Source of the DNA: Candidatus Magasanikiibacteriota bacterium
GTDB taxonomy: Bacteria > Patescibacteriota > Patescibacteriia > Magasanikbacterales > 2-02-FULL-50-9b
DNA length: 64,000 nt
NCBI GenBank assembly: GCA_943355025.1
Contig: CALRDW010000002.1
Coordinates: 7,252 to 71,251, forward strand
Direction: 5' to 3'
This document shows positions 10,205 through 45,546 of the stretch, in pieces. Position 1 is the first letter of the stretch; every line of letters starts with the position of its first letter. The notes under the pieces were generated by a model. That model did not search any database. It saw only the letters and a list, made by a program, of their open reading frames with translations, and was not told the origin of the DNA. A program made the translations under genes and the position numbers.

Positions 10205-11209
10205 TTATGCTACGGGTGTCGGTGTAATTCCGAGCTCTGCACATTCGTGCTCAACCATGATGCGGACCAATTCTTTGAAGTGTACTTTTGGTTTCCACCC
10301 CAGTTTTTCCGCTGCTTTTGTTGCATCACCAATAAGTAAATCAACTTCTGTTGGGCGGTAGAGGCGTTCTTCGGTAATAATGTAAGGCATCCAATCTGTG
10401 ATACCAACAAGACGAAAAGCTTCTTCAACGAATTCTCGAACACTATGTGTTTCGCCAGTCGCTATAACAAAGTCTCCTGGTTCGGGTTGTTGAAGCATGA
10501 GCCACATTGCCTCAACATATTCTGGAGCATAGCCCCAGTCACGCTTTGCATCAAGATTACCAAGGTCCAGAATCGTTCGTTTTCCCGCCGCTATCTCAGC
10601 GACCGCACGAACAATTTTTTTTGTTACAAAATTTTCTCCACGTCGGGGTGACTCGTGATTAAATAAAATGCCATTGCTGATGAACATGCCATAAGCTTCT
10701 CTATAATTTACGCCGATCCAATACGCGTAGAGTTTTGAAACGCCATATGGACTTCGTGGATAAAAAGGTGTCGTTTCTTTCTGTGGCACTTCTTGAGCTT
10801 TTCCAAACATCTCAGAAGAAGACGCTTGATAAATTTTTGTTTTTAATCCAAGCACCTGAACGGATTCGATAAGTTTCATTGCGCCGAGCGCAACGGTTTG
10901 TGCTGTATAGAACGGTAAATTAAAACTGATACGCACGTGGCTTTGAGCCCCAAGATTATAAATCTCGTCTGGTTTAACAGTTTGAAGGATACTGAAAATG
11001 CTTGAGTCATCTGTCAAATCGCCGTAGTGTAAAATTACAAAATTTTCTGGATTATCAGCGCTCAGCAAATGTTCAACTCGACTTCGATTAAATGTGCTTG
11101 CGTGGCGGACCATTCCGTGCACCTCATAGCCTTTTGCAAGCAAAAATTCAGCAAGATATGAGCCGTCTTGGCCTGTAATTCCGGTTATGAGCGCTCTTTT
11201 TTTGTTCAT
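10205..11209 (-). CDS. gmd: GDP-mannose 4,6-dehydratase
   Basis: [36 protein letters not shown] is a near-canonical Gmd N-terminus. SDR catalytic tetrad context present. 334 aa. Confidence 0.9.
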
Positions 11210-11367
11210 ATGGTTGGATTTGCAGCTGAATAGTTGTGTGTGCGTTGGAATATTACGCTAAAAAGACGGCTGCAGTCAACACCTTGTTGGGCCGTCTAAC
11301 CCAGTAAAGTTTAAATACCAAGGTTTACAATCGTGCCCATAAATGCTACTCTTTATGGAACTTCTGT

Positions 11368-12843
11368 ATGAATGAGCGTGGTATTTTTTCGAAATCAATT
11401 CACGGTGGGAAATGGTTATTGATGAGCGTTGTTGCGAATAAAGTAATCAATCTCGCTCCTTTTTTCGTTTTAACACGACTGTTATCTCCTATAGATTACG
11501 GTATTATAAACATAGCTTTTCTGGTTTCTTCGTTGGGAGATAAATTATTTAATATTAATTTTGATCAGGCTTTAATTAGAAAACGTGGCTCGATTGACGA
11601 AGAGCTGGCGACTGTGTGGACTTTTGGGCTGCTCCGCTCAGCATTCATAGCGTGTCTAATTTTTTTTCTGTCGGGCTGGGTTTCGGTTCAGCTGCATGTA
11701 CCATCAAGTTACATAAATATTATTCGGTATAGCGGACTTTTTTTGATTCTGAGCGCCTGTGCGAATCCTCAGCAGACAAAACTCTTTAGAGATTTGGACA
11801 TGCGCCCTTATTTTTGGCGCGATTTTGTTGCTGCAATTGTCTACGCAGTAGTATCGATAGGGTGGGCAGTTTTTGTAAGCGCAACCGTGTGGGCTTTATT
11901 TATTGGTTACGTTGCACGATTGCTCGCAGGAGTATTCATGACTTATTTTTTCGTGCCAATAATTCCAAGAATCAAATGGAATGTTCGGCATTTGTTGCCG
12001 CATGTGCGACAAGGTCTCCTATATTATTTTCAAGATTTGGGGAGCTATTTATTGTCTGCTACTGACGCGTTTATTGTTGCGCATCTTTTTACAGTAACGG
12101 ACGTTGGATTTTTTACTCGCGCACAAGATACTGCATCAATGGTATCGTCCTCGCTTCTATCAGTTATAAATAAATTAGCTTTTTCCGCCTACGCAAATTT
12201 ACAAACTCAGTTAGAAAAAGTCAGAGATGGTTTTTTAAAAAATCTGGATGTGTTTTTAATGCTGAGTCTACCTTTTTGCGTGCTCATCATTTTAGATGGT
12301 GGTGAAATTGTGCGCATTCTTTTTGGAGAAAAATGGTTAGCGCTTGTTTTACCTCTCAAGATTTTTTCATTTGGAACAATTTTTATCAACATTTCAAATA
12401 GTATAACACCGATATTAAACGCATTGGGTTACGCAAGGTATGTTGTAAAAATAAATGCTGTTCAGCTTTGTGCGATGGTAATTGCCGTTGTGTTCGGCGC
12501 TCATTTCGGTGGCCTTATTGGTTCCGTGATTGGGGTCGTGTGTGCAAGCATCATTACATTCGGTATCGGATTTTTTAAATTGAATGCAGTATTAAAAATT
12601 GATTTTAGTCATTACAGTGCGCCAATAATCAGCGGTTTCGCGGCTTCATTAGCGACCGTTCTCGCCTCCATTTTTCTGAGGCATTATTATTTTAACTCAG
12701 GTTCGAAAATTTTGTTTGTTGTTTTGATGAGCCTTCTCAGTAGTATTTACTACTCGGTTTTATTTATTACAAGTTATAAATTGCAAGCGGGCCCGTGGTT
12801 TACGCTACGCAAAGTCTTTACTGAATTCATCAGACTTCACTAG
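11368..12843 (+). CDS. polysaccharide biosynthesis protein, Wzx-like oligosaccharide flippase (MOP superfamily)
   Basis: 491 aa with ~12-14 TM helices and the typical length and topology of O-antigen/teichoic-acid flippases. Divergent from gmd. Confidence 0.65.
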   Translation: MNERGIFSKSIHGGKWLLMSVVANKVINLAPFFVLTRLLSPIDYGIINIAFLVSSLGDKLFNINFDQALIRKRGSIDEELATVWTFGLLRSAFIACLIFFLSGWVSVQLHVPSSYINIIRYSGLFLILSACANPQQTKLFRDLDMRPYFWRDFVAAIVYAVVSIGWAVFVSATVWALFIGYVARLLAGVFMTYFFVPIIPRIKWNVRHLLPHVRQGLLYYFQDLGSYLLSATDAFIVAHLFTVTDVGFFTRAQDTASMVSSSLLSVINKLAFSAYANLQTQLEKVRDGFLKNLDVFLMLSLPFCVLIILDGGEIVRILFGEKWLALVLPLKIFSFGTIFINISNSITPILNALGYARYVVKINAVQLCAMVIAVVFGAHFGGLIGSVIGVVCASIITFGIGFFKLNAVLKIDFSHYSAPIISGFAASLATVLASIFLRHYYFNSGSKILFVVLMSLLSSIYYSVLFITSYKLQAGPWFTLRKVFTEFIRLH

Positions 12844-12891
12844 TTGACGTACTGTAGATCACAGATTACTATATAATAAATAAATGATCCT

Positions 12892-14022
12892 ATGATCCCG
12901 TACGGTCGCCAAACAATAGATGAAGATGATATCGCTGCAGTTGTTTCTGTATTGAAATCGGATTGGTTGACGCAAGGTCCTCATATTTTAGAATTTGAAA
13001 AAGCGCTCGCTGAATATTGCGGTGCGCGGTTTGCAGTTGTAGTTTCAAATGGAACAGCAGCGCTTCATACCGCATACCATACACTTCATCTCAAGCCAGG
13101 CGATGAAATTATTACATCGCCACTTACATTTGCTGCAACAACCAATGCAGCGTTGTGGGAAGGCGCCCGCCCTATTTTTGTAGATATTGATCCGACGACA
13201 GGGAATTTAGATCCGAAGCTCATCGAAGAAAAAATAACAGAAAAAACGCGCGCGATTGTACCGATTCATTTTAGCGGACGGCCAGCTGACATGGATTCAA
13301 TTCGAGAAATTGCAGATCGACACAAACTCGCGATTATCGAAGATGCGTGTCACGCTCTCGGCGCAGTATATAAAGGAAAAAAAATCGGCTCGAGTAGCGG
13401 GTTAGTCGCGTTTAGTTTTCATCCTGTAAAAGGAATTACTACTGGCGAGGGTGGTGCGGTACTCACAAATGATGAGGATGTGTATAAAGAGATGAAACGT
13501 TTTGCATCACATGGAATTTCAAAAGAAAATTTTGTTCGAGAATCTCCGGGTGCTTGGTATCATGAGATGCAAATATTGGGAAATAATTATCGCATGACAG
13601 ACATGCAAGCGGCACTTGGCACAAGCCAGCTTAAAAAAATCGATTCATTTATTTCACGTCGTCGTGAAATTGCACGGCGGTATAGAGCAGAACTTTCTGC
13701 AGGTTCAAATTTTGAACTTCCACCAGCGGATACTGCGGACTATCAATCTGCGTGGCATTTATATGTAATTCGGTTGCGCGGAAAAAATACATCTCGGCGT
13801 GCGGAAGTTTTTGGGAAACTTCGGGACGCAGGCATTGGTGTGCAGGTACATTATATCCCTGTGTACCTACATCCGTATTATGAGTCACTGGGGTATGTGA
13901 AGGGACTGTGTCCGTTAGCAGAGAATTATTACGAAGCTGAAATTTCTTTGCCGATTTTTCCAAGCCTGACTGACGCTGAACAGGATTTTGTGATACGCAC
14001 TCTGCGTATAGTGCTCGCATAA
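12892..14022 (+). CDS. DegT/DnrJ/EryC1/StrS family PLP-dependent sugar aminotransferase
   Basis: N-terminal IPYGRQTIDEDDIAAV...GPHILEFEKALAEYCG...VVSNGTAALH. The SFHPVKGITTGEGGAV motif holds the Schiff-base lysine context. Confidence 0.85.
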   Translation: MIPYGRQTIDEDDIAAVVSVLKSDWLTQGPHILEFEKALAEYCGARFAVVVSNGTAALHTAYHTLHLKPGDEIITSPLTFAATTNAALWEGARPIFVDIDPTTGNLDPKLIEEKITEKTRAIVPIHFSGRPADMDSIREIADRHKLAIIEDACHALGAVYKGKKIGSSSGLVAFSFHPVKGITTGEGGAVLTNDEDVYKEMKRFASHGISKENFVRESPGAWYHEMQILGNNYRMTDMQAALGTSQLKKIDSFISRRREIARRYRAELSAGSNFELPPADTADYQSAWHLYVIRLRGKNTSRRAEVFGKLRDAGIGVQVHYIPVYLHPYYESLGYVKGLCPLAENYYEAEISLPIFPSLTDAEQDFVIRTLRIVLA

Positions 14023-14027
14023 ATAAT

Positions 14028-15122
14028 ATGGATTTATTTAAGCCAGATAATTTTTCCTCGTCAGAGGTTGTTTTTAAAAAAAATTTAAACCATAGCCTTG
14101 ATTTTTTTTTAAAGGTGTTTAATTATTATTTTAAATCGCCAGTACTAATCAGTATTGAGGAGTTGGGCGGGCGTGCGATTAACTCTCAGAATTTTCGTAT
14201 TAAGCTCGAAACTGACGACGGTATTTTACATGATGTGCTATTTCGTCGATGCATTTTTTTCTCGGACCAGATTCAAATTATCTCATGTCTCAAGGTTATC
14301 GCAGCAAGCCGCATCTATGGAGCAGCCGTTCCGGAGGTTCTAAAAACAATTGAGGGGCTTCAATTCATAACACATGCAGGTGAGTTTTTCGTTCTATTTA
14401 ATTTTATATCAGGGAATTATTTTGTTCCTCATATTCTCGCCTACAGCTCTCTTGCGCAATCACTTGCTAGATTGCATCGTTCATTCGTGATCTTAGATGA
14501 GGATCTCGTGAACGCTATTCGAACAGAAAGTCAGAAAAATATAAAAGCGTATTATAATAAGGTAACGGAGTATTCGCGTGCTGATTTTGAATTTTTTTTG
14601 AATATGGTTGATCCAGAAATTCGAGTGGAATTAACAAATTTAATGCCACTTATAGATACGACAGCGCGGACTGTGGGCAAACTTAATGAATGCTATTCAC
14701 AAATTATCCATTCGGACATGCACCCGCATAATGTCCTGTTTGAGGGAGATGCACTCGAAGCGATACTCGATTTTGATGCACTTCGATATGCAGAGCGAGC
14801 GCGCGATGTTGGTATGGCGCTCTATCGATTCGGTCGACAATTTTTTGTTGCAACACACGCAATAGACTCGTGTGATCTGCATGATCAGGCACACGAATAT
14901 ACGAAGAGATTCATACAAGAGTATGCTGCAGTGAATCCATTGACACAAATAGAATTAGAGTATATGCCGTTCATTGTCGCTGATGAATTTATAAAAAAAT
15001 TGCTTTTTGTACTCAGAAGTGTGTATATTGAGAAGAATACGGTGTGGGCGGCAGACATTAGTAAGTTTTGTAGCGCGTTATCAGAAATTACTTTTTTTTG
15101 GGATTATGACACACAAAACTAA
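14028..15122 (+). CDS. aminoglycoside/choline-kinase-like phosphotransferase (APH fold)
   Basis: Catalytic loop IHSDMHPHNVLF and Mg-binding ILDFD. 364 aa. Confidence 0.6.
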   Translation: MDLFKPDNFSSSEVVFKKNLNHSLDFFLKVFNYYFKSPVLISIEELGGRAINSQNFRIKLETDDGILHDVLFRRCIFFSDQIQIISCLKVIAASRIYGAAVPEVLKTIEGLQFITHAGEFFVLFNFISGNYFVPHILAYSSLAQSLARLHRSFVILDEDLVNAIRTESQKNIKAYYNKVTEYSRADFEFFLNMVDPEIRVELTNLMPLIDTTARTVGKLNECYSQIIHSDMHPHNVLFEGDALEAILDFDALRYAERARDVGMALYRFGRQFFVATHAIDSCDLHDQAHEYTKRFIQEYAAVNPLTQIELEYMPFIVADEFIKKLLFVLRSVYIEKNTVWAADISKFCSALSEITFFWDYDTQN

Positions 15123-32014: not shown

Positions 32015-32064
32015 GCGCGCCCCAAATTGTTCTGCGGAACAAGGGTGGGCGCGCTGTTTTTATT
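32015..32064 (+). terminator. rho-independent terminator after 31328..31999, overlapping the stop codon of the convergent acyl-CoA synthetase gene
   Basis: gcgcgccc (32015..32022) / gggcgcgc (32047..32054) stem followed by tgtttttattt. Confidence 0.5.
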
Positions 32065-34039
32065 TCGCGATATTTTTTATTTCATTGAATATTTCTGAGT
32101 GCTGAATATGTGCGAGTGCGCCGACATCACGGCCGAGATACGCAGCAACGTATTTTTTTCGTGGAATTTTTCCAGATAATGTTCGAGGCGCCGCGGTAAT
32201 TATAAAAAATTCATCGGGCTTTGCAAGCGGATCGTATACTTCGCCAACACGGCGGCGAAGCCCGGGGATCGCCGCCTCAGCATCTGCTGTTGAAACTTCC
32301 GTGGCCGCAACAAGAAAACATACGATTTTTTGGCCCCATTCGTTGTGCGGAACTCCGATCGCAATAGCCTCTTTAATTAGATGCTCTGGCGCACTCGTGA
32401 GCGCCGCTTCGATTTTAACCGGATCAATCTTTACAGCTTTGCGTACGATTAAATCATCTGCGCGTCCCGTCAAAAACCAGTAACCATCCTCATCACTATA
32501 TCCACGATCACCGTGGCGCCACTCATTTTTATTTTCTGAAAAGTACGTCTCTTCAAAGAGACTCTGATTTTTAAAAAACCCACGCGACATCGAAGGAAAT
32601 GGTTTTCGGCACACAAGAAATCCCTCCTCATTTGTTTTTGCATCAATATCTTCGTCTGTTACGATTGCAACATCCATTCCAAGTCCGCGTGTGCCGACGC
32701 TTGAAATTTTTTGCGGCATAATCGGGAGCGGTGAAACAAAGCATCCGATCAATTCTGTGCCGCCAGAAATATTCATGATGGGGCAGCGGCTGCCACCTAT
32801 TTTTTCGAAAAACCATCGGTACTCTTTTTCGCCGAGCGGCATGCCGGTTGATCCGAGAATGCGTAGATCTGGAAAACGCGTGTTTTCGTATGCACCAGAA
32901 TGCATGAGCTGTGAAATTTGCGGTGGCGTTGTTCCAAAAATAGTAACGCGATAATCCGTCAGGATTCGTTCGAGTCTGTGGGGTTTTGGGTGGAGGAGCG
33001 AGCCAGTTGCGATTACAATCGTGCCGCAAAAAAAATGTACACCAACAAGTTCCCACGGCGCCATCATCCATCCGAAATCTGTTGTCCAAAAAAAGACATC
33101 ATTTTTTTCTGTTTGATAATCAAATATATATCCGATTTCTTTTGCAGTTTGCGCGATCACTCCACCATGCGTGTGCACAATCATTTTTTGTTTTCCGGTT
33201 GTACCGGAAGAAAATAAAATGAGCGCAACAGTTTCAGCGGCAAGATTTTTTGTCGCGGGCGTTTTTGTGTGCGCGCTGGCGACCAAAAATTGTTCCCACG
33301 TTTTTGTGTGCGCAAGATTTTTAAATGGAGTGTCGACTGCCGGAAAAATTATTTGTTCAAGATTATTTTCTGAGAGTAACGCGTGTGTGCGGTCAAGTGA
33401 AAAAATTCGTCCCGCGTTTTGATATCCGTTGTCAACAAAAATGACATGTGCGTCGCCAGCATGCGCAAATTCCGCAACTTGTTCTGCACCAAGACGCGGA
33501 GAAATTTGCATGACTGCGACGCCGAGTTTAAAACCCGCATACATGAGTGCAACAGACTCTGGCGAGAGGCTCATACAGGAACATATCACGTCGCCAGAAG
33601 AAATTCCTCGTGCCGTGAGCCCTCGTGCGACCTCGTCAATTTTTTGTGCGAGCCTTGTATAAGTTATGGTTTCATTAACGCCGTTTTCTGTATCAAAAAT
33701 GAGCGCGACCGCATCGCCTCGACCTTCTGCATTGTGTCGGTCGACACAATTATCCGTAATATTTAATTCACCGCCGCTGAACCAGGTTGCGCGTGAAAAA
33801 CCGCCAGAGGCATCAAGAAGAGTGGTGTATGGTTTTTGCCACGAAACGCCGAGATCGTCGAGTGCTGCGCGCCAAAACCACTCAGTATTGTTGCATGATC
33901 GGTTGACGAGTTCTTGCCAGCTTGCAATAGTGTGTGTACGTATGAAACGAGCGACGCGGCTCGTCTCCAGCAGCTCTTTTGTTGGTTGCCACACGAATTT
34001 ATGCATAAGAATTGGCTTAATGCTACCAAATATGTACAA
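32060..34039 (-). CDS. AMP-forming acyl-CoA synthetase, acetoacetyl-CoA synthetase-like (Acs/AACS family)
   Basis: SSGTTGKQK AMP-binding motif. NCVDRH N-terminal block. KFVWQPTKELLETSRVARFI resembles the AACS N-terminus. 659 aa. Track start is TTG 34039; ATG 34006 (MHKFVWQP) is an alternative. Confidence 0.75.
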   Translation of the reverse strand: MYIFGSIKPILMHKFVWQPTKELLETSRVARFIRTHTIASWQELVNRSCNNTEWFWRAALDDLGVSWQKPYTTLLDASGGFSRATWFSGGELNITDNCVDRHNAEGRGDAVALIFDTENGVNETITYTRLAQKIDEVARGLTARGISSGDVICSCMSLSPESVALMYAGFKLGVAVMQISPRLGAEQVAEFAHAGDAHVIFVDNGYQNAGRIFSLDRTHALLSENNLEQIIFPAVDTPFKNLAHTKTWEQFLVASAHTKTPATKNLAAETVALILFSSGTTGKQKMIVHTHGGVIAQTAKEIGYIFDYQTEKNDVFFWTTDFGWMMAPWELVGVHFFCGTIVIATGSLLHPKPHRLERILTDYRVTIFGTTPPQISQLMHSGAYENTRFPDLRILGSTGMPLGEKEYRWFFEKIGGSRCPIMNISGGTELIGCFVSPLPIMPQKISSVGTRGLGMDVAIVTDEDIDAKTNEEGFLVCRKPFPSMSRGFFKNQSLFEETYFSENKNEWRHGDRGYSDEDGYWFLTGRADDLIVRKAVKIDPVKIEAALTSAPEHLIKEAIAIGVPHNEWGQKIVCFLVAATEVSTADAEAAIPGLRRRVGEVYDPLAKPDEFFIITAAPRTLSGKIPRKKYVAAYLGRDVGALAHIQHSEIFNEIKNIAK

Positions 34040-34072
34040 GAAAGGGAAGTTGTGTTAGACTCTTCAGTTGTT

Positions 34073-35191
34073 ATGACACCAAACAAAGTTTTTATTTTTG
34101 GTTACGCACGAACACCTTTTGGAAAATTTCAGGGTATTTTTAAGGATGTTTCGGCGCGAGACTTGGGCGCGGCCGCTGTTCGGGAGGCAATTATACGCGC
34201 TGGTGTTCCAGTCACAAACATTGACGCTGTTTATTTTGGAAATGCGCTTCAAGCACGCGGGGGACAAAATCCAGCGCGACAAATTTTGTTAGCAGCTGGA
34301 ATTCCGGAAACGGCTGCTGCTGAGACAATTAATAAAGTGTGTTCATCATCGCTCGCAGCGCTTGCACACGGGCTGCGTGAAATTCAGGATGGCCACGCAA
34401 CGTACGTTGTTGTTGGCGGCGTTGAAAGCATGAGCACTGCACCGTTTTTGAACGAGGATGGTTTGTCGGATGCATATGGGGAACACAAATCCATGGGTGA
34501 ACTTGCGGAAATTTTTGCGCAGGACAAAAAAATTTCTCGCGCTGATCAAGATGCGTGGGCCATTCGAAGTAATGCACGCGCGTATGCTGCGATGCAGAAC
34601 AATATTTTAAAAAAAGAAATTATACCGTTTGAACTCAAAGGTAAAATATTCGAGACTGATGAATGTGTTCGTGAATCGGCGCCAGAAAAAATAAAATCCT
34701 TGCCTCCAATCTTTGATGCATCGACCGGAATGATAACGGCGGCGTCAGCTTCTAAAATATGCGACGGTGCAGCAGCACTGGTGCTTGGCGGCGAGAACGC
34801 GCGAGAATTATTTTCTGCAGAGCCACTTGCCCGAGTTGTCGATGTTGTTTCATTTTCAACACGCCCCGCCGAATACACAGGCGCTCCTGTCGGCGCGATT
34901 CGTAAACTGTTAGAAAAAAATAATTTGCGCGTCGAGGAGATCGATGCATTTGAAATACATGAGGCGTTTGCAGCGACAGCTTGTTTCGCGGTGCGTGAGC
35001 TCGGAATTTCAGAGGCTCGTGTAAATATTTTTGGTGGTGCACTTGCAATCGGTCATCCGCTTGCGACGTCTGGTGCGCGACTCGTTGGCAGCCTAGCTCT
35101 TCGAATTGCTCGCGCTGAATGCACACGCGCAATCGCTGTAACGTGTAATGGCGGTGGCGAAGCCGTTGCCGCACTACTTGAAAAAATATGA
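34073..35191 (+). CDS. acetyl-CoA C-acetyltransferase (thiolase II)
   Basis: VFIFGYARTPFGKFQG N-terminus, the active-site Cys region NKVCSSSLAAL, and the C-terminal CNGGGEAVAALLEKI. Start moved to ATG 34073. Confidence 0.9.
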   Translation: MTPNKVFIFGYARTPFGKFQGIFKDVSARDLGAAAVREAIIRAGVPVTNIDAVYFGNALQARGGQNPARQILLAAGIPETAAAETINKVCSSSLAALAHGLREIQDGHATYVVVGGVESMSTAPFLNEDGLSDAYGEHKSMGELAEIFAQDKKISRADQDAWAIRSNARAYAAMQNNILKKEIIPFELKGKIFETDECVRESAPEKIKSLPPIFDASTGMITAASASKICDGAAALVLGGENARELFSAEPLARVVDVVSFSTRPAEYTGAPVGAIRKLLEKNNLRVEEIDAFEIHEAFAATACFAVRELGISEARVNIFGGALAIGHPLATSGARLVGSLALRIARAECTRAIAVTCNGGGEAVAALLEKI

Positions 35192-35871
35192 AAATAACAT
35201 ACGTAATTTCAACGATCAAATCATGGAATATCGATGCAGCACTCGAGCTGCAAAAGAATGATCTTGATCATAATTGGGTAATTATTTCAGACAAAAAAGA
35301 TTTGACTACCGAATCTCTTAAAGAATTAAATCCGCGATATATTTTTTTCCCACACTGGTCATGGATTATTCCGGAGGATATTTTTTCTACATACGAATGC
35401 GTTGTCTTTCATATGACAGACCTGCCGTATGGTCGTGGTGGGAGTCCTCTTCAAAATTTAATTGTGCGCGGACACGACAAAACTTTCGTGAGTGCGATTC
35501 GAGTTGTGCGCGAGATGGATGCGGGCGACGTCTATATGAAACAACCTGTTTCACTTGCGGGAACGGCTGATGATATTTTGCAGCGCGTATCAAAATGTTC
35601 GTTTGAAATGATTAAAGAAATAATTGTATCAGAACCAGTGCCATCGCCTCAGGTTGGCGACGTAACAGAGTTTAAACGACGCAAACCAGAAGAAGGATCG
35701 TTGGCACCACTTGCATCGCTGCAAGAAGTTTATAATCATATTCGGATGCTCGACGGCGAGGGGTATCCGCGCGCATTTTTAGAGACGGAACACATGCGTT
35801 TTGAATTTGAGGATGCGGAAATTACAAATGAGAAACTTGTTGCGCGAGTCACGATCAAGAAAAAAATATGA
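35188..35871 (+). CDS. formyltransferase-fold protein, putative sugar N-formyltransferase
   Basis: VVFHMTDLPYGRGGSPLQNLI matches the HxSLLPxxRG catalytic loop of Fmt/PurN/ArnA-N domains. 227 aa. Confidence 0.55.
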   Translation: MKITYVISTIKSWNIDAALELQKNDLDHNWVIISDKKDLTTESLKELNPRYIFFPHWSWIIPEDIFSTYECVVFHMTDLPYGRGGSPLQNLIVRGHDKTFVSAIRVVREMDAGDVYMKQPVSLAGTADDILQRVSKCSFEMIKEIIVSEPVPSPQVGDVTEFKRRKPEEGSLAPLASLQEVYNHIRMLDGEGYPRAFLETEHMRFEFEDAEITNEKLVARVTIKKKI

Positions 35872-36539
35872 AGAAAATAATTTTAGTTATTGCAGCGCAT
35901 CCGGATGACGAATTATTGGGCGTGGGCGCAACTCTTGCTGCGCATGTACGGGACGGCGACGATGTTTTTTGTGTAATCCTTGGTGAAGGAATGAATTCGC
36001 GTGAAGGCGCGCAGAGTGAAGAGCTTGCAGCGCTTCACGCCAACGCGCGCACGGCTGGTGCGATTATTGGTTTTAAGGAAATGTATTTTTGCAATGTACC
36101 TGACAACGCATTCGATACCGTTAGTTTACTTTCGATCACACAAAGGGTTGAAAAATATATCGCGGAAATTAAACCAGAAGTAATCTATACGCATCACGGT
36201 GGCGACCTCAACATTGATCACCGCCTAACGTTTCAGGCTGTACTCACAGCATGCCGACCCTGTAATGAACATGCTCCGCAGATTTTATATACATTTGAAA
36301 CTGTTTCGTCGACTGAATGGCAAAGCAAAGATGCACAACAATTTAAACCAACGTCGTATAAAAATATCGAAGCAACATTTGAAATTAAATTGCGCGCGCT
36401 TCGATGTTATGTTTCTGAGATGCGTGAGTTTCCACATTCACGATCGGAAAAAGGTCTCGAAGTTTTGGCGCAGTATCGCGGCATGGAATCGGGAATGCTT
36501 CTCGCTGAGGCATTTTGTCTTGTACGTCAAAAAATATGA
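35868..36539 (+). CDS. PIG-L/LmbE family N-acetyl-sugar deacetylase
   Basis: ILVIAAHPDDELLGVGATLA (the AHPDDE zinc-binding motif). 223 aa. Confidence 0.85.
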   Translation: MKKIILVIAAHPDDELLGVGATLAAHVRDGDDVFCVILGEGMNSREGAQSEELAALHANARTAGAIIGFKEMYFCNVPDNAFDTVSLLSITQRVEKYIAEIKPEVIYTHHGGDLNIDHRLTFQAVLTACRPCNEHAPQILYTFETVSSTEWQSKDAQQFKPTSYKNIEATFEIKLRALRCYVSEMREFPHSRSEKGLEVLAQYRGMESGMLLAEAFCLVRQKI

Positions 36540-37018
36540 ATCAGAAAAACAGCTTTATAGCACCACAATTAAATTTTCGCCGCGCGTGTTTGAGTGACTC
36601 AGACCGATTGCTTGGTTGGAGAAACGACCCAGATGCGCGCATCAATTTTTTTAATACCAATGAGGTTTCACAGGCTAATCATGAGGCATGGTTTTTTGAT
36701 GTTTTGCAAAATAAAAATCAGATTCTTTATATCATTGAGACACGGGGCTGTTTGCCGATTGGACAAATGCGTTTTGATATTGACGGAGAATGTGCAGAGA
36801 TTAGCATTACGATAGGAAAAAAATATCGTGGCCGCGGCTATGGCAGCGAAGCAATAAGGCAGGGGACACGGCTTTTTTTTCAAGAAAATATAGGTGTTAA
36901 GAGTATAATTGCACAGATAAAAAATATAAACGAGATCTCTATCCGCTCTTTCATTCGTGCTGGGTTTATGATGAGTGCCTCAATGGCTAATACAACAAAA
37001 TTGATTTTGATGAAATAA
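36536..37018 (+). CDS. GNAT family N-acetyltransferase (PseH-like size)
   Basis: ISITIGKKYRGRGYGSEAI is GNAT motif A (R/Q-x-x-G-x-G/A). ATGA start/stop overlap with the deacetylase gene. Confidence 0.6.
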   Translation: MNQKNSFIAPQLNFRRACLSDSDRLLGWRNDPDARINFFNTNEVSQANHEAWFFDVLQNKNQILYIIETRGCLPIGQMRFDIDGECAEISITIGKKYRGRGYGSEAIRQGTRLFFQENIGVKSIIAQIKNINEISIRSFIRAGFMMSASMANTTKLILMK

Positions 37019-37349: not shown

Positions 37350-37817
37350 ATGCCAACAATCAGTCAACTGATTCGAAAAGGGCGTACGTCGGCGAAGAAG
37401 AAGAGCAAGTCTCCTGCAATGCAGTGGACTTTGGATTCTCTCCACCGTCGTCGTCACGAAATTAAGGGCGGCGCGCCATATAAGCGCGGCGTTTGTACAA
37501 AGGTCACAACCATGACCCCAAAGAAACCTAACTCAGCTATCCGTAAGATCGCTCGTATTCGGTTATCAAACGGCATGGAAGTCACAGCGTATATTCCAGG
37601 TGAAGGTCATAATCTTCAAGAGCACTCAATCGTTATGATTCGTGGTGGTCGTGTTAAGGATTTGCCAGGTGTTCGCTACCACGTTGTTCGTGGTGTATTT
37701 GATGCACAAGGTGTTGCGGGTCGTCGTCGCAGCCGTTCAATCTACGGTGTAAAGCGTCCAAAAGCAGGCGCAGCAGCTCCAGCAGCTAAGGGAGCCCCAA
37801 AAAAAGGTAAGAAATAA
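37350..37817 (+). CDS. rpsL: 30S ribosomal protein S12
   Basis: [12 protein letters not shown]...[16 protein letters not shown]...[22 protein letters not shown]. Carries a ~12-aa N-proximal insertion and a 17-aa Ala/Lys-rich C-terminal extension. Confidence 0.95.
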
Positions 37818-37820
37818 TAT

Positions 37821-38288
37821 ATGCGAGGTAAACAAGCTCCAAAGCGCGACATCGCGCCAGACCCAATGTTCAACGACCCATCTCTCGGTAAGTTTATCAA
37901 TTTCTTGATGCTTGATGGCAAAAAAGTAACGGCACAAAAAATTGTGTACGGTGCATTCGCGATTATCAAAAAAGCAGAAGACAAAGAGCCTCTCGAAGTA
38001 TTTGAAGAAGCTCTTCGCAATGTTGGTCCGTCAGTTGAGGTTAAAACAAAACGCGTTGGTGGCAGCAACTACCAGGTGCCAATTCCAGTAAAGCCAGAGC
38101 GCAAAAATTCTCTTGCAATGCGTTGGATTATTAATGCAGCACGCGCAAAGAAGGGTCGTGCAATGACGGAAAAGCTCGCAGAAGAAATTACACTCGCAGC
38201 AAAAGGAGAGGGCGACGCAATGCGCAAGAAAACCGATGTGCACAAAATGGCAGAATCAAATCGCGCCTTTGCTCACTTCGCCTACTAA
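37821..38288 (+). CDS. rpsG: 30S ribosomal protein S7
   Basis: Start MRGKQAPKRDIAPDPMF. S7-family central block KRVGGSNYQVPIPVKPERKNSLAMRWII. Confidence 0.95.
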   Translation: MRGKQAPKRDIAPDPMFNDPSLGKFINFLMLDGKKVTAQKIVYGAFAIIKKAEDKEPLEVFEEALRNVGPSVEVKTKRVGGSNYQVPIPVKPERKNSLAMRWIINAARAKKGRAMTEKLAEEITLAAKGEGDAMRKKTDVHKMAESNRAFAHFAY

Positions 38289-38300
38289 TCGCTCACTCTT

Positions 38301-40379
38301 ATGCCACGAGATTATTCTCTCTTGCACACTCGTAATTTTGGTATTATCGCGCATATTGATGCAGGTAAAACCACCGTGTCAGAACGCATCTTGTTTTACA
38401 CGGGTAAGAAACATAAGATCGGCGAAGTTCACGAAGGAGAAGCAACGATGGATTGGATGGAGCAGGAACGCGAACGTGGTATTACAATTACCGCTGCTGC
38501 GACAACCTGTTTTTGGAAAGACACCCGCATGAACTTGATTGACACGCCAGGACACATTGACTTCACGGTTGAAGTTAAGCGCTCGCTCCGCGTGCTTGAC
38601 GGGGCTGCTGTTATTTTTGACGGCGTTGCCGGTGTTGAACCGCAGTCTGAAACAAATTGGCGCTATGCTGATGAGCTAAACGTTCCGCGGCTTTGTTTCA
38701 TCAACAAGCTCGACCGCACAGGCGCAGATTTTTACAAGGACGTGAAATCGATTCACGATCGTTTGACGAAGGTTGCAATTCCTATGCAGCTTCCAATCGG
38801 ACAGGAAGGCGGTTTTCGCGGTTTTGTTGATTTACTCCGCATGCGTTCAGAGGTGTACTACGATGAAATGGGTCAGGATGTTCGCGAAGAAGATGTGCCG
38901 GCTGACATGCTCGAAATATGTACAGAATATCGTGCGAATCTGATTGAGAAAATTGTTGAGAATGACGAAAGCGCGATGGAGCGTTACTTGGCAGGCGAGG
39001 AAATTCCTCTTGCTGAGCTCAAAGCAATTATTCGTAAGGCAACGATTGCTGGCGCGTTTATTCCAATTTTGTGTGGTAGCGCGCTTAAGAACAAGGGTGT
39101 TCAATTTTTGCTCGACGCGATTGTTGACTATCTTCCTTCGCCGCTCGACGTGCCACCAATTGTTGGGCATGATCCAGACGACGAAACTGTGGAAATTCTT
39201 CGCCATGCTGATGACAGCGAACCGTTTACAGCTCTCGCGTTTAAAGTTGCGGCAGATCCATTCGTGGGTAAGCTGACTTTTTTCCGTGTGTATTCTGGTA
39301 CTCTCAAGGCTGGTTCGTATGCGCTCAACTCATCAACGGGTGAAAAAGAGCGTTTTGGCCGTATCGTGCGCTTGCACGCAAACACACGTGAAGATGTGGA
39401 TGAGGTGTTTGCGGGTGACATTGCTGCTGCAGTAGGTCTCAAATCAACCACAACGGGTAACACTCTGTGTGATATTGATAAACCAGTGCTGCTCGAAAAG
39501 ATTATTTTTCCTGAGCCGGTTATTTCGCTTGCGATTGAACCAAAAACAAAACAAGATCAAGAGAAAATGGGTATCGCACTCCAAAAACTCGCTGAAGAAG
39601 ATCCAACATTCCGTGTGCACACAGATGATGAAACCATGCAGACAATTATTGCGGGTATGGGTGAGCTTCACCTTGACATTATCGTTGATCGCATGAAGCG
39701 CGAATTTAAAGTTGAAGCAAACGTGGGCGCACCGCAAGTTGCGTTCAAGGAAGCGATCCGCGGTACAGCAGAAGCAGAAGGAAAGTATGTAAAACAGTCT
39801 GGTGGCCGTGGTCAGTACGGACATTGCTGGCTTAAGGTTGAGCCAAATGAAGCGGGCAAAGGGTTCGAATTCGTTGACGCAGTTAAGGGCGGCTCAATTC
39901 CAAAGGAATACATCGCACCAATTGAAAAAGGTGTTAAGGAAACGATGGCGCGCGGTGTTTTGGCTGGGTATCCAATGCTCGACATCATTGCAACAGTATT
40001 TGACGGTTCGTATCATGAGGTTGATTCGAATGAAGCAGCGTTTAAGATTGCAGGCTCCATGGCATTCAAAGAAGCGTGTCAAAAAGCAGGCATGATGCTT
40101 CTCGAACCAGTTATGAAAGTTGAGGTTTTGACGCCAGAAGCAAATATGGGCGATGTTATTGGTAACATTTCCTCAAAGCGTGGTGTTGTTCGCGAAATGC
40201 GCGACCGTGTCGGCATCAAAGTTGTGGATTCAGAAATTCCACTCGCCTCAATGTTTGGCTATGCAACAGAACTTCGTTCGATGACGCAGGGCCGTGCATC
40301 ATATTCTATGGAATTTTCTCATTATGCAGAAGTTCCCCAGAATGTTGCGAAGGAAGTTATCGAAGGACGAAAGAAATAA
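38301..40379 (+). CDS. fusA: elongation factor G
   Basis: [15 protein letters not shown]1 motif, DTPGH and NKLD. 692 aa. Confidence 0.95.
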
Positions 40380-40431
40380 AAATAAAAAATTAGCATCTAC
40401 ACTCAGAACATAAAAAGTTAATTGGATTAGT

Positions 40432-41388
40432 ATGCCTGTTCTTCAATCAATCAAAAATGGACTGCGTGATAATTTGCCCCAGGAAGTATTTCAAACCGTT
40501 CGCCGCTTGAAGCGAACGGTAACGGGCAACGGGACGCTCGTTGAACGCAAGCACATTACATTGTTGGAAAAAATGGTGCGTGGACTCATACGATTTATTC
40601 TCGTTGAGCGGTTTCCCGATGTTGCTCGTCCACGCGACGCGCGAAGTGAGATCAACAAACACGAATTCAAATTGTATTCGCAAAATGGGGAGGACGGTAT
40701 TTTGCTCCATATTTTTAATGCGATAGGAGTTACTAATCGAACGCTCGTTGAATTTGGAATCGGAGATGGCAGAGAAAATAATGCCGCAAATTTACTTTTG
40801 AATTTTGGATGGGGCGGCTTGCTCATGGACAGCTCGTTCGATAATTGCGCTTCAGCAGATTTGTTTTACAGAACTCTCATCGATAATTCGGATGTAAAAC
40901 ACATTAAAGTTGCTCAAGAGTTAGTAACGAAAGAAACCATTAATGCTTTGTTAGAAAAGTATAACGTAACCGGCGAGATTGATTTATTGTCCATCGATAT
41001 TGATAGCAATGACTATTGGGTGTGGGACGCAATCAGTTCTATAAACCCCCGCGTTGTTGTTGTTGAATATAACGCATCATTTGGCGCAACCCAGTCCGTT
41101 ACCATGCCAAACACTGATGAATTTGATCGATTCGAACATCACGAAAAGGGTTATTATCATGGAGTTTCTGTTGCGGCTCTCGTAAAACTCGGCGAGAAAA
41201 AAGGGTATGTATTCGTGGGCTGTGATAGTTCCGGATGCAATACATTCTTTATTAGAAAAGATATTGCGACTCAATTCACAGGTGTTTCTTCAAGTCAGGC
41301 GTATTATCCGCACGCACGACGGTTGAAAAAAAGCACTGAAGCTGAGCAGATTAAGATTGTTGGTCAGTATCCCGTTGTAACTATTTGA
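40432..41388 (+). CDS. hypothetical protein with a class-I methyltransferase-like glycine motif, inserted between fusA and tuf
   Basis: 318 aa. YSQNGEDGILLHIF followed by LVEFGIGDGRENNAANL, a motif-I-like E/D-x-G-x-G-x-G. No other assignable motif. Confidence 0.4.
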   Translation: MPVLQSIKNGLRDNLPQEVFQTVRRLKRTVTGNGTLVERKHITLLEKMVRGLIRFILVERFPDVARPRDARSEINKHEFKLYSQNGEDGILLHIFNAIGVTNRTLVEFGIGDGRENNAANLLLNFGWGGLLMDSSFDNCASADLFYRTLIDNSDVKHIKVAQELVTKETINALLEKYNVTGEIDLLSIDIDSNDYWVWDAISSINPRVVVVEYNASFGATQSVTMPNTDEFDRFEHHEKGYYHGVSVAALVKLGEKKGYVFVGCDSSGCNTFFIRKDIATQFTGVSSSQAYYPHARRLKKSTEAEQIKIVGQYPVVTI

Positions 41389-41395
41389 TCGGTAA

Positions 41396-42592
41396 TTAAA
41401 GGGTCGCAGCGATTTTTTTTATTCCTGCATGCAGCTCTTTCAGTTTAATTTCGTAGTTCAGTTCATCTTCTTTTAATCGCGCGAAACAGTTTGAGGATAA
41501 TTGTGCACGCAGTTCAGGATCAGCGCCGAGCTGCTTGATTTTTTCAGCCAGTTCTGCCACATCGCCATCCTTAAAATAAAGTGCGCTATTTTTAGCAACC
41601 CACTGGAGCCCGCCACCAGCAGGTAAAATACAGGGTAAGCCGAATGTCATCGCTTCTAAAACGGTAATCGACGTAAGTTCTGTTCGCCAACGCGCCTGGA
41701 TAAAAATATCGGCGGTTTTGAAATATTCAAACACACGTTCTTTTGTTACCCAACCAGGAAATTCAACGTAGGATTCAATACCTAATTCTTTTACGCGCGA
41801 TCTGATGAGCGCCTCTTCGGGGCCGTCGCCGCCGAGAATCAATTTGAATTGATTTTTGTTTTTTAATCTTGAAAACGCTTCGATTAAGATGTCATATCCC
41901 TTGCCCGGCACCATGCGCCCCGAATAAAAAATTTTGAGCGGGGAGTGGGGAGTAGTATTTCGTTCCTTATAGGAATCTTCCGTTACAGCGCCTTCTTTCA
42001 ATACAGTTTTAAAATCGTAAGGGTCGCCGAGGATCATGCTTTTTTGTGCGGTCACAAGACCAAACGTTTCATAACATTTTTGTAGCACAGGATTGGTAAA
42101 TGATAACCAATCGATATGGTTTGCGAGCCACATGCCAATATTTTTTTCAATCAGCCAGCGAATTTTTTTCTTCGCTCGTCGCAGCGCGTTGTCCGCCATG
42201 CGTATAAAAAGATCAGAGTTGCTCAGCGGCCAGCACGTAAGCTCACGATTAAAGAATGCAGAGATGGGGGTTTTGCCGCCAAGCGCGCGATAGAGTCCCG
42301 CGCCATAGAGAAAGAGGTGACCGTCAACGTGGAATACATCGGCCTGACCCTCATTTTTTTTGAGTATTTTGTAGCTTCCCCAGAGGATTGTAAGCAGGCG
42401 CGTTGAAGAAATATGTTCTTCGATAACATCATAGGGTAGGCCACCGAGATTACTATTGTTATCTGAAAACGCAGTGATGACTCGCACCGACTCGCCAAAT
42501 TTTTGGAGCGTTCGAAATTTTAAATCGAATTCTCCGATTGATCCGCCAGAGGAAATAAAATTAAGTTTAGATGTGAGAAAAATTATGCGCAT
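41396..42592 (-). CDS. glycosyltransferase family 4 (antisense to the ribosomal operon)
   Basis: VLEAMTFGLPCILPAGGGLQWV within an E-x7-E region. GT-B N-terminal domain. 398 aa. Confidence 0.8.
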   Translation of the reverse strand: MRIIFLTSKLNFISSGGSIGEFDLKFRTLQKFGESVRVITAFSDNNSNLGGLPYDVIEEHISSTRLLTILWGSYKILKKNEGQADVFHVDGHLFLYGAGLYRALGGKTPISAFFNRELTCWPLSNSDLFIRMADNALRRAKKKIRWLIEKNIGMWLANHIDWLSFTNPVLQKCYETFGLVTAQKSMILGDPYDFKTVLKEGAVTEDSYKERNTTPHSPLKIFYSGRMVPGKGYDILIEAFSRLKNKNQFKLILGGDGPEEALIRSRVKELGIESYVEFPGWVTKERVFEYFKTADIFIQARWRTELTSITVLEAMTFGLPCILPAGGGLQWVAKNSALYFKDGDVAELAEKIKQLGADPELRAQLSSNCFARLKEDELNYEIKLKELHAGIKKIAATL

Positions 42593-42668
42593 ATGAATTT
42601 GGAAAGTTTAACAAGGAAGCGTTGGTCGCGCAAATGAGTTTTAGAGTTGTGGTATACTGCCGCGTACT

Positions 42669-42968
42669 ATGGAGCAATTATTACAACGTGCGCTTGAGCT
42701 TTCACAAAAAACAGGAGAACGGCTGATCGTGTGTGATCAAAAAACAGGAGCTGCTTTTGTCATCCTGTCCTTGGAGGCCTATGAGGCTTTCGTGAATAAG
42801 GCCGATTTTCAGCAAAAAAAACACACAATTTCGACTAAAAAAGAACCAGAAGTGGCGCGCTTGACAAACACCTCGCTTCTCGATAAAATAAACCGCGAAC
42901 TTGGAGAAGCAGTCGAAACACCAACTCCAGAGGCTAGTGAGTTCTTAACAGAGTCCCTAGACATTTAA
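42669..42968 (+). CDS. small hypothetical protein with Phd/YefM-antitoxin-like N-terminal segment
   Basis: 99 aa. GERLIVCDQKTGAAFVILSLEAYEAF resembles the YefM core ([23 protein letters not shown]). Acidic C-terminus. No adjacent toxin-like ORF. Confidence 0.3.
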   Translation: MEQLLQRALELSQKTGERLIVCDQKTGAAFVILSLEAYEAFVNKADFQQKKHTISTKKEPEVARLTNTSLLDKINRELGEAVETPTPEASEFLTESLDI

Positions 42969-42997
42969 AAGGCGATAAATAGGGGAATTATCCCCAC

Positions 42998-43026
42998 TTG
43001 CACCTTTTTAAAAGTTCTGTTATAGT
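42998..43026 (+). promoter_or_regulatory. sigma70-like promoter upstream of tuf
   Basis: TTGCAC (42998..43003), 17 nt, TATAGT (43021..43026). Preceded by the palindrome ggggaattatcccc. Confidence 0.45.
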
Positions 43027-43081: not shown

Positions 43082-44269
<1,188 letters not shown>

Positions 44270-44347: not shown

Positions 44348-44698
44348 ATGACTACAGTCCTTGCAGACGAAAAGCAAAAGAAGGTAGAGGAAACTGGGCA
44401 ACGTATTCGCCTTAAAGTTCGTGCATACGATCACAAGATTATCGACGCGGCAACGCGCACGATCATTGAAGCGGTTGAGCGTTCGGGCGCTAAGGTGCGC
44501 GGTCCTGTGCCACTCCCGACCAATATCAAAAAGTTCACTGTGAACCGGTCGACGTTTGTGCACAAAGATGCTCGAGAGCAGTTTGAAATGCGTATTCATA
44601 CGCGTCTCATCGATATTTTGGAGCCATCCAGTAAAACGGTTGACCTGCTTATGTCGTTATCCTTACCAGCTGGCGTGGACGTAGAGATTAAAATGTAA
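44348..44698 (+). CDS. rpsJ: 30S ribosomal protein S10
   Basis: Q+[39 protein letters not shown] is the S10 signature. Confidence 0.9.
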
Positions 44699-44820: not shown

Positions 44821-45546
44821 ATGAAATTCATAATTGGCAGAAAATTAAACATGACGCAGATCTTCCGCCCCGACGGTTCGGTGGTGCCAGTGACGCGTAT
44901 TCAGGCGGGGCCACTCACGGTCACGCAAATTAAGAATGAGGGTGGTAAACAGGTTGCTGTCCAGGTGGGTTTTGATACCACAGCGAAACATCAAAGCAGA
45001 TCAGTCGCAGGCCATCTTAAGGGCTTGCCAATGTTCCGCGTGCTTCAAGAGTTCCGTACAGAGCAATCTGTAAACCGTGGCGATATGATTACCGTTGAAA
45101 CGTTTTCACCGGGCGACCATGTTGATGCAGTTGGAACTTCAAAGGGTAAGGGTTTCGCAGGTGTAGTTAAACGCCATCATTTTCGCGGTGGTCCTGCTTC
45201 ACACGGTCACAAAGACAATCTTCGCGCCCCAGGTTCAATTGGTGCGGGCGGTGTACAGCGTGTGTTTAAGGGAATGCGCATGGCAGGTCACATGGGTGAT
45301 GAGCGTGTAACCGTAAAAAATTTAGAAATTGTTGCAATTGATCCAGAAAATAACGAAATTCTTGTTAAGGGCGCGGTGCCTGGTGCTCGAAATTCAGTTA
45401 TTACTCTTTCAACTCCGACGGGCGAGCTTGTTATCAAGCAAACAGGATCGGCAGTTGTTATTGAAGAATCACAGCCTGCTGAAACTGTTGACGTCGCTCA
45501 AACGGACGAAGTAGCGGAAGTCGTTGCTGAAGAAGTAACCGCATAA
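44821..45546 (+). CDS. rplC: 50S ribosomal protein L3
   Basis: MKFIIGRKLNMTQIF...KGKGFAGVVKRHHFRGGPASHG. Confidence 0.93.
   Translation: MKFIIGRKLNMTQIFRPDGSVVPVTRIQAGPLTVTQIKNEGGKQVAVQVGFDTTAKHQSRSVAGHLKGLPMFRVLQEFRTEQSVNRGDMITVETFSPGDHVDAVGTSKGKGFAGVVKRHHFRGGPASHGHKDNLRAPGSIGAGGVQRVFKGMRMAGHMGDERVTVKNLEIVAIDPENNEILVKGAVPGARNSVITLSTPTGELVIKQTGSAVVIEESQPAETVDVAQTDEVAEVVAEEVTA

Follow-up and report, generated by a model that had tools for sequence, protein, structure and literature searches.

Our study of a 64,000-nucleotide (nt) stretch of a Candidatus Magasanikiibacteriota genome (contig CALRDW010000002.1, positions 7,252 to 71,251; hereafter the window) revealed that fusA and tuf, the genes for the elongation factors EF-G and EF-Tu, are separated by 2,702 nt holding three intact open reading frames (ORFs). 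The interval is probably composed of an ancestral gene and promoter that precede tuf, together with a lineage-specific cargo of two genes. On this explanation a gene for a small, acidic protein, represented here by ORF99, would be an ancestral occupant of the fusA-tuf interval across a wide range of Patescibacteria, and tuf would be transcribed from its own conserved promoter located past that gene, the rpsL-rpsG-fusA-tuf unit having already been split in the clade. Gene gain would be tolerated between fusA and the ORF99-family gene, with unrelated cargo in different lineages, and in this lineage the cargo would be a convergent pair encoding an FkbM-type methyltransferase and a GT4 glycosyltransferase.

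The interval is bounded upstream by fusA (38301-40379, plus strand), which encodes an EF-G of 692 amino acids (aa) with all EF-G Pfam domains present, and downstream by tuf (43082-44269, plus strand), which encodes an EF-Tu of 395 aa recognized by the Pfam EF-Tu profile. A 52-nt spacer (40380-40431) leads to the first cargo gene, ORF318 (40432-41388, plus strand, 318 aa), which converges upon the second, the GT4 gene (41396-42592, minus strand, 398 aa), with 7 nt between their stop codons. A divergent intergenic region of 76 nt (42593-42668) then separates the GT4 gene from ORF99 (42669-42968, plus strand, 99 aa), a short member of the family found before tuf. An earlier, preliminary description of this DNA had placed three ORFs between fusA and tuf, and every coordinate that it gave was reproduced by our ORF map.

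The premise of that description, that tuf normally lies directly after fusA, held in 50 loci from outside the Patescibacteria that were collected with the same EF-G query, where the gap was 105 nt at the median and at most 410 nt. The gap of the window therefore interrupts a canonical junction, as had been proposed. Within the Patescibacteria, the 13 loci with both genes showed gaps of 86-6,646 nt, and 10 of these exceeded 450 nt. An interrupted junction is unusual for bacteria at large but not for the Patescibacteria, in which interruptions that include antisense genes are common; cargo on the minus strand between fusA and tuf was also seen in three other collected loci (L005, L100 and L103).

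A single-sequence (word-based) search with ORF99 returned only ORF99 itself. Six close relatives nevertheless have an ORF directly before tuf that resembles it, as does, more weakly, locus L020, and a family profile was built from the ORFs directly upstream of tuf in relatives. A search with this profile gave 368 proteins, and an exhaustive search gave 1,491 representatives of 50 %-identity clusters at E≤0.001, including 259 at E≤1e-10. Where names were given by the sources, these were hypothetical proteins of Uhrbacteria, Doudnabacteria or the 'Patescibacteria group', and across lineages the proteins are only ~20-40 % identical. ORF99 of the window scored 69-92 bits against the family profiles. 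Wherever the flanks were visible, the family gene lay between fusA and tuf and on the same strand (19/19 distinct loci), and in 17 of the 18 loci with tuf visible it stood immediately before that gene; five of the loci examined are short metagenome loci, a small sample that fits the pattern throughout. The exception is L086, the only such case found, in which a DUF559-type gene and a 336-aa ORF lie between the family gene and tuf; this locus holds two DUF559 (endonuclease-like) genes, at 523-858 and 6487-6837. The family hidden Markov model matched nothing else when run over >1 Mb of locus sequence, to which other phyla contributed ~60 loci, and among the material examined the family is restricted to Patescibacteria. 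As homologues hold the same position between fusA and tuf in 19/19 divergent Patescibacteria loci, ORF99 was not inserted. The searchable literature yielded no description of the family, nor of interruptions between fusA and tuf in Patescibacteria.

The cargo between fusA and the family gene differs between lineages, which marks this stretch as a recurrent site of gene gain. In L005 and L100 it consists of a PrmA-like methyltransferase on the minus strand and an APH-type kinase, a pair that L103 expands to six genes. L008 carries a GT2 glycosyltransferase with two proteins that have no Pfam match, L010 a CYTH-like protein, L088 two ORFs without a Pfam match, and the window ORF318 and the GT4 gene, for which no other locus collected had a homologue between fusA and tuf. 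The lineage-specific part of the window is thus the ~2.2 kb (40380-42668) that holds ORF318 and the GT4 gene. L013, a locus without an ORF99-family gene, has its gap filled by a histidine phosphatase and a GNAT-like ORF of 244 aa. The two genes of the recurrent pair (L005:10111-11687, L100:258-1829 and L103:340-1904) diverge, the small methyltransferase, which is PrmA/DOT1-like, lying on the minus strand and the APH-type kinase, of 338 aa, on the plus strand. In a Magasanikbacteria metagenome-assembled genome (MAG; L009), an ORF of 1,616 aa follows fusA at 10216-15066, with no tuf within 5.8 kb.

The proposed tuf promoter was found at 42998-43026 on the plus strand (TTGCAC, 17 nt, TATAGT, with TG at 43018-43019), and tuf has, as had been suggested, a promoter of its own. 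It is not fresh, however, contrary to what had also been suggested: in an alignment of nine loci past the stop codon of the family gene, the -35 element and the extended -10 element are invariant and at fixed spacing (CTTGC, 17 nt, TG.TA.A.T), and L013, L102 and L103 have similar elements before tuf. A generic scan missed this promoter, the -35 element of which matches the consensus at 3/6 positions, and it is the phylogenetic footprint that argues for the promoter being real. Judged from this alignment, the predicted promoter is ancestral to the clade rather than newly created. The claim that tuf is uncoupled from fusA is accordingly supported as far as the separate promoter goes, but not as a consequence of the insertion, since conservation of the promoter, with similar elements before tuf in relatives that do not carry this cargo, indicates that the uncoupling came first. 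As a separate observation, three Doudnabacteria-type loci (L020:11310-11462, L084:6385-6520 and L089:6500-6648) share a conserved, structured-looking leader before tuf, CCCTGGAT...GAGAUACCCUUGGC...UCGAUA...GGGGUCUCGGGC, which is absent from the window; from three sequences only, RNAalifold predicted 33 pairs, of which 8 show compensatory changes, and there was no credible match in Rfam.

Other signals in the interval are less certain, as sigma-70 and terminator scans of the window gave matches no more frequently than in shuffled sequence, and promoter calls other than the footprinted one are therefore tentative. An extended -10-like element, TGgTATACT (42650-42658), lies in the divergent region 10 nt before the ATG of ORF99 and may drive this gene with a very short leader; consensus promoters occur directly upstream of family members in L007, L008, L010, L088 and L096. 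Inside ORF99, a plus-strand promoter-like match of uncertain status (42861-42889; TTGACA, 17 nt, TAAAAT) agrees with the consensus at 11/12 positions and overlaps the DKI codons, ~1.8 such matches being expected by chance in the window. TTGACA/TAAAAT hexamers also precede tuf in L020 and L089, about as far from the gene as here, and the match could be a second tuf promoter or a product of chance. A plus-strand hairpin, GGGGAATTATCCCC (42982-42995), begins 14 nt past the ORF99 stop codon, with a T-run that starts 9 nt past the stem, and may be a weak terminator or a messenger RNA 3' end; L010 and L088 have a canonical terminator of hairpin and T-run at the equivalent position. The terminator scan detected no terminator-like site between fusA and ORF318, nor between ORF318 and the GT4 gene. 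As the 52-nt spacer contains no hairpin or terminator, ORF318 would probably be read through from the str operon, and the lack of a terminator after ORF318, with stop codons only 7 nt apart, makes antisense read-through into the GT4 gene possible. The GT4 gene itself would be transcribed from the 76-nt divergent region that it shares with ORF99, ORF99 from its own extended -10 element, and tuf from the promoter at 42998-43026.

Members of the ORF99 family share an N-domain of ~45 residues (KTG-R-iV-D ... fV-l-L-eYe, with V21, D23 and Y38 invariant), a mid helix (DKINrdI or INrEI) followed by an acidic linker that varies in length, and a C-terminal acidic-aromatic motif, [DE]F-x-x-E-x-[VL][DE], which reads EEFYLEPVE in one subfamily and DPSFDFEGPK-E-DDL in another. 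All of these features are kept in ORF99 of the window, with LLDKINRE in the mid helix (residues 70-79) and a C-terminus, EFLTESLDI, that aligns with EEFYLEPVE, and by its motifs, helix, linker, C-terminus and position the protein belongs to the family. The family is acidic throughout, with isoelectric points (pI) of 4.05-5.24 in 45/45 aligned members and a median net charge of -1 (range -7 to +1) for the N-domain. ORF99 also contains an exact 13-nt direct repeat, CAAAAAACAGGAG, at 42705-42717 and 42738-42750, which codes for QKTGE and QKTGA; the KTG motif is thus present twice, whereas it is single in other family members.

The preliminary description had called ORF99 a YefM-like ORF without a toxin, and both parts of this were recovered, as a weak match to the Pfam PhdYeFM profile (PF02604) and as the absence of any adjoining toxin-like ORF. 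Residues 6-49 aligned with positions 14-56 of the profile (E 0.007; 16.6 bits against a gathering score of 29.8), and 22 of 45 family members matched PF02604 at E≤0.01, the best at 1.5e-6. No sequence-profile match was obtained in the PDB. In an AlphaFold2 (AF2) model made from the family alignment, residues 1-50 were confident (predicted local distance difference test score, pLDDT, ~80) and formed a helix, two strands and a helix, and the remainder was disordered except for the helix at 70-79; the model starts with a helix and has only two strands, the first one of the antitoxin fold being absent. The best Foldseek match was non-significant (E 0.37), although YefM, RelJ and Phd chains recurred among the matches, with a probability of 0.72-0.84 for YefM. 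No toxin-like gene adjoined a family gene in 19 loci, and PADLOC gave no match. ORF99 was not classified as an antitoxin because a toxin partner and a complete fold were both sought and neither was found, and we conclude that it is a putative toxin-less derivative of the Phd/YefM fold. The acidity of the protein disfavours the binding of an operator. Our preferred guess, drawn from synteny, acidity, the conserved C-terminal motif and the partly disordered model, is that ORF99 acts as a protein-binding adaptor linked to EF-Tu or translation. A fuller proposal, to which we give a low probability, is that the family constitutes an unrecognized accessory of the translation apparatus of Patescibacteria, the acidic-aromatic tail of which would dock on EF-Tu, another translational GTPase or the ribosome, much as the tails of antitoxins grip toxins and those of stalk proteins recruit GTPases; the position before tuf would reflect this partnership, and the stretch on the fusA side would be a clade-wide hotspot of gene gain that arose when tuf gained its own promoter.

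ORF318 contains the motif-I-like sequence VEFGIGDG noted previously, at residues 106-113, and in an alignment of homologues E107 and G109 of this motif are invariant and G113 is ≥90 % conserved. Its sole Pfam match, to the FkbM profile Methyltransf_21 (PF05050), reached 19.5 bits and fell under the cutoff of 22.7, but ~4,978 homologues were found, the best being 55 % identical, some of which are named FkbM-family methyltransferases by their sources. Among 39 aligned homologues (41-53 % identical), 30 matched PF05050 at E≤0.01, the best at 3e-7. The AF2 model (pLDDT 91.5; predicted template modelling score, pTM, 0.86) had 464 PDB matches at E≤0.001, and the top 50 listed were all of methyltransferase fold, including a sugar O-methyltransferase domain. 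The protein is thus predicted to have a class I S-adenosylmethionine (SAM)-dependent methyltransferase fold with a glycine-rich motif I, and it is probably a divergent FkbM-type methyltransferase that acts on a sugar or glycan; homologues lie in Wzx/Wzy/glycosyltransferase polysaccharide clusters in 3/3 contexts examined.

The gene on the opposite strand had been described as a GT4 glycosyltransferase, and its 398-aa product indeed gave a clear match to Glycos_transf_1 (PF00534; 110 bits, cutoff 26.4) and 91.2 bits against Glyco_trans_1_4 (PF13692), with an E-x7-E motif, ELTSITVLE, in the translation. The N-terminal Glyco_transf_4 domain (PF13439) scored only 13.3 bits against a cutoff of 28.5, and the length of 398 aa suits a two-domain GT-B enzyme. 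From the C-domain and the E-x7-E motif the product is assigned as a GT4 (GT-B) glycosyltransferase by sequence. Its best NCBIfam matches were exopolysaccharide (EPS) and teichuronic-acid GT4 enzymes, all far under their equivalog cutoffs, and PADLOC gave no match. We also considered a single glycosyltransferase conservedly tied to tuf, and rejected it: the GT2 of L008 is not orthologous to that of L084 and L089, and the enzyme of the window is a GT4. The latter two Doudnabacteria-type loci have orthologous GT2 genes (L084:7781-8437 and L089:7921-8565; 41 % identity) between tuf and rpsJ.

A surface-polysaccharide cluster spans ~9-37 kb of the window (28 kb) and ends just before rpsL. It encodes a Wzx-type flippase, two DegT aminotransferases, a C-methyltransferase and a GT4 enzyme, as well as UDP-sugar dehydrogenases and epimerases and formyltransferase, PIG-L deacetylase and GNAT proteins. 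The end of the cluster (32060-37018) holds an AMP-binding acyl-CoA synthetase on the minus strand, a thiolase, a formyltransferase-like gene, a PIG-L deacetylase and a GNAT protein, which suggests an unusual N-acylated amino sugar. The most likely role of ORF318 and the GT4 enzyme is to methylate and lengthen a glycan of the cell surface in concert with this upstream cluster.

Other explanations of the interval were weighed against the one given here. A chimeric join at ~40400 or ~43000, which the preliminary description had named as a possible refutation, can be put aside for practical purposes: contigs of four samples (ERZ27280326, ERZ27280297, ERR5863128 and ERR5863107), from no fewer than two assembly pipelines (those of the ENA deposits and Logan), each span both junctions with an identical gene order at 99.9-100 % identity, agreement that makes misassembly very unlikely, and composition is continuous across the junctions. 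It is highly improbable that the three genes arrived as a single recent 2.6-kb insertion, possibly acquired horizontally, that forced a new promoter upon tuf. Their joint location between fusA and tuf speaks for it, as does the slightly lower GC content of the interval (0.41-0.45, compared to 0.47 for fusA and tuf). However, the GC content at third codon positions (GC3) of ORF318, the GT4 gene and ORF99 is 0.40-0.44, which is that of fusA, tuf and secY, integrase and transposase genes are lacking, as are tRNA genes in the vicinity, and flanking repeats were at chance level only (12-23 nt). The Rfam and tRNA scans found no known RNA family or tRNA in or near the interval, and defence (PADLOC) and phage libraries gave no relevant match in it beyond a generic glycosyltransferase, the two weak PHROGs matches, one annotated as a glycosyltransferase and the other as a radical SAM domain protein, both being to the product of the GT4 gene. 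The interval does not have the features of a mobile genomic island or a horizontally acquired cassette. What stood of the proposed three-gene insertion is therefore the lineage-specific pair, and what fell is ORF99, whose homologues occupy the same position in 19/19 loci, together with the new promoter, which is conserved in nine loci; conservation of all three genes at the junction in relatives, which had been put forward as a refutation, was seen for ORF99 only.

The nature of the individual genes admits alternatives of its own. It is most unlikely that ORF99 is an orphan or degenerating Phd/YefM antitoxin, the toxin gene of which has been lost or lies elsewhere. The weak PF02604 matches, the alpha-beta-beta-alpha N-domain that resembles the YefM core and the recurrence of YefM, RelJ and Phd structures in Foldseek speak for it, but the 19 loci without a toxin-like neighbour and the lack of a PADLOC match do not, the match to the Pfam profile lacks its first 13 positions, the N-domain is acidic, and a large family that is conserved over its full length, including the C-terminal motif, and fixed in its place beside tuf is unlike selfish or decaying toxin–antitoxin (TA) genes. 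Phd/YefM N-domains bind operators in TA systems, and the family could instead be a DNA-binding regulator of the adjacent tuf promoter, with an acidic tail that senses a partner such as EF-Tu, which we regard as unlikely. In its favour, the family gene is always beside the conserved tuf promoter, and many members have a near-consensus promoter of their own and those of L010 and L088 their own terminator, so that co-transcription does not explain the fixed synteny; yet few DNA-binding domains would be expected to have such an N-domain charge and pI range, the fold is without its N-terminal strand, no palindrome common to all nine tuf promoters was seen, and the invariant D23 would align with a DNA-contacting Arg of Escherichia coli YefM. 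For the cargo, modification of the translation machinery (EF-Tu, EF-G or ribosomal proteins) by the methyltransferase and GT4 enzyme could account for their location, and methylation and phosphorylation of EF-Tu are known in other bacteria. Methyltransferases and protein-kinase-like APH proteins recur as cargo in L005, L100 and L103, and GT2 genes adjoin tuf in L008, L084 and L089. We nonetheless hold this to be a remote prospect, as the polysaccharide contexts of the ORF318 homologues, the EPS and teichuronic-acid enzymes that best match the GT4 protein and the large glycan cluster immediately upstream all point elsewhere, and cargo families that vary by lineage imply a permissive site and not a shared function.

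Our explanation of an ancestral gene and promoter with a two-gene cargo is itself open to several objections, in addition to the tentative status of most promoter calls. Taken as a single sequence, ORF99 stays below the Pfam threshold for a Phd/YefM assignment, and its Foldseek matches are non-significant. The tie between the cargo and the upstream cluster is one of functional class only, with no paralogues and no shared operon. The EF-G of the window is at best 72 % identical to those of the species-representative genomes searched (Falkowbacteria, Uhrbacteria and other Patescibacteria MAGs), which points to an uncultured member of the candidate phyla radiation, and in the absence of a close relative the gain of the methyltransferase and GT4 genes can be neither dated nor given a direction. 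A strain variant, L101, differs at 3/2,886 positions, too few for a ratio of non-synonymous to synonymous substitution rates (dN/dS).

Upstream of fusA lie rpsL (37350-37817) and rpsG (37821-38288), and downstream of tuf is rpsJ (44348-44698), all three on the plus strand, with rplC and rplD of the S10 operon after rpsJ. The S12 protein of the window (37350-37817) has 155 aa, with a Lys/Ala-rich C-terminal tail beyond ~residue 138, and uL3 (44821-45546) has 241 aa and an acidic C-terminal tail; relatives of both proteins align to the core only.

Taken together, the two-gene glycan insertion is a routine variant of gene order and ordinary in itself, and it matters mainly as an example of a recurrent permissive site in a highly conserved bacterial gene array. 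The more interesting lead is the ORF99 family, which is large, unannotated and kept next to the EF-Tu gene across lineages, and which labelling as an orphan antitoxin would misrepresent. Since Patescibacteria have reduced genomes and unusual ribosomes, the family is a candidate for a lineage-specific translation or regulatory factor.

Compared to the canonical str operon of E. coli and Bacillus subtilis, the window retains the order rpsL, rpsG, fusA ... tuf, rpsJ and a tuf promoter of its own, and secondary tuf promoters are known in model bacteria; the difference lies in the one to seven additional genes that part tuf from fusA, some of them on the opposite strand. ORF318 shares with the FkbM family (PF05050) the class I SAM-dependent methyltransferase fold, the glycine-rich motif I and homologues in Wzx/Wzy/glycosyltransferase clusters. 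It is distinguished by a Pfam score below the gathering threshold, by an N-terminal helical extension of ~75 residues in its subfamily and by its location, the rpsL-fusA genes lying between it and the main glycan cluster. The GT4 enzyme has the strong Glycos_transf_1 C-domain and the E-x7-E motif of the enzymes of EPS, O-antigen and teichuronic acid synthesis (EpsE, TuaC and WcaL type), but it has no equivalog-level match (71.7 bits against a cutoff of ≥400), its N-domain is barely detectable, and its antisense location between fusA and tuf is unusual. ORF99 resembles the Phd/YefM antitoxins (PF02604) in its predicted helix-strand-strand-helix core and disordered C-terminal half, and departs from them in having no toxin gene, a missing first beta-strand, acidity throughout and a C-terminal motif of its own; TA loci are also scattered and mobile, whereas the ORF99 family holds a fixed position between fusA and tuf in the Patescibacteria examined. 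With regard to the site, a study of Gammaproteobacteria reports multigene insertions between concatenated translation operons (PMC6735719), so that accessory genes there likewise gather at the boundaries of a conserved ribosomal and translation gene array. The insertions it reports lie between operons, whereas the site in the Patescibacteria is inside what is elsewhere one operon and is marked by a lineage-specific resident gene.

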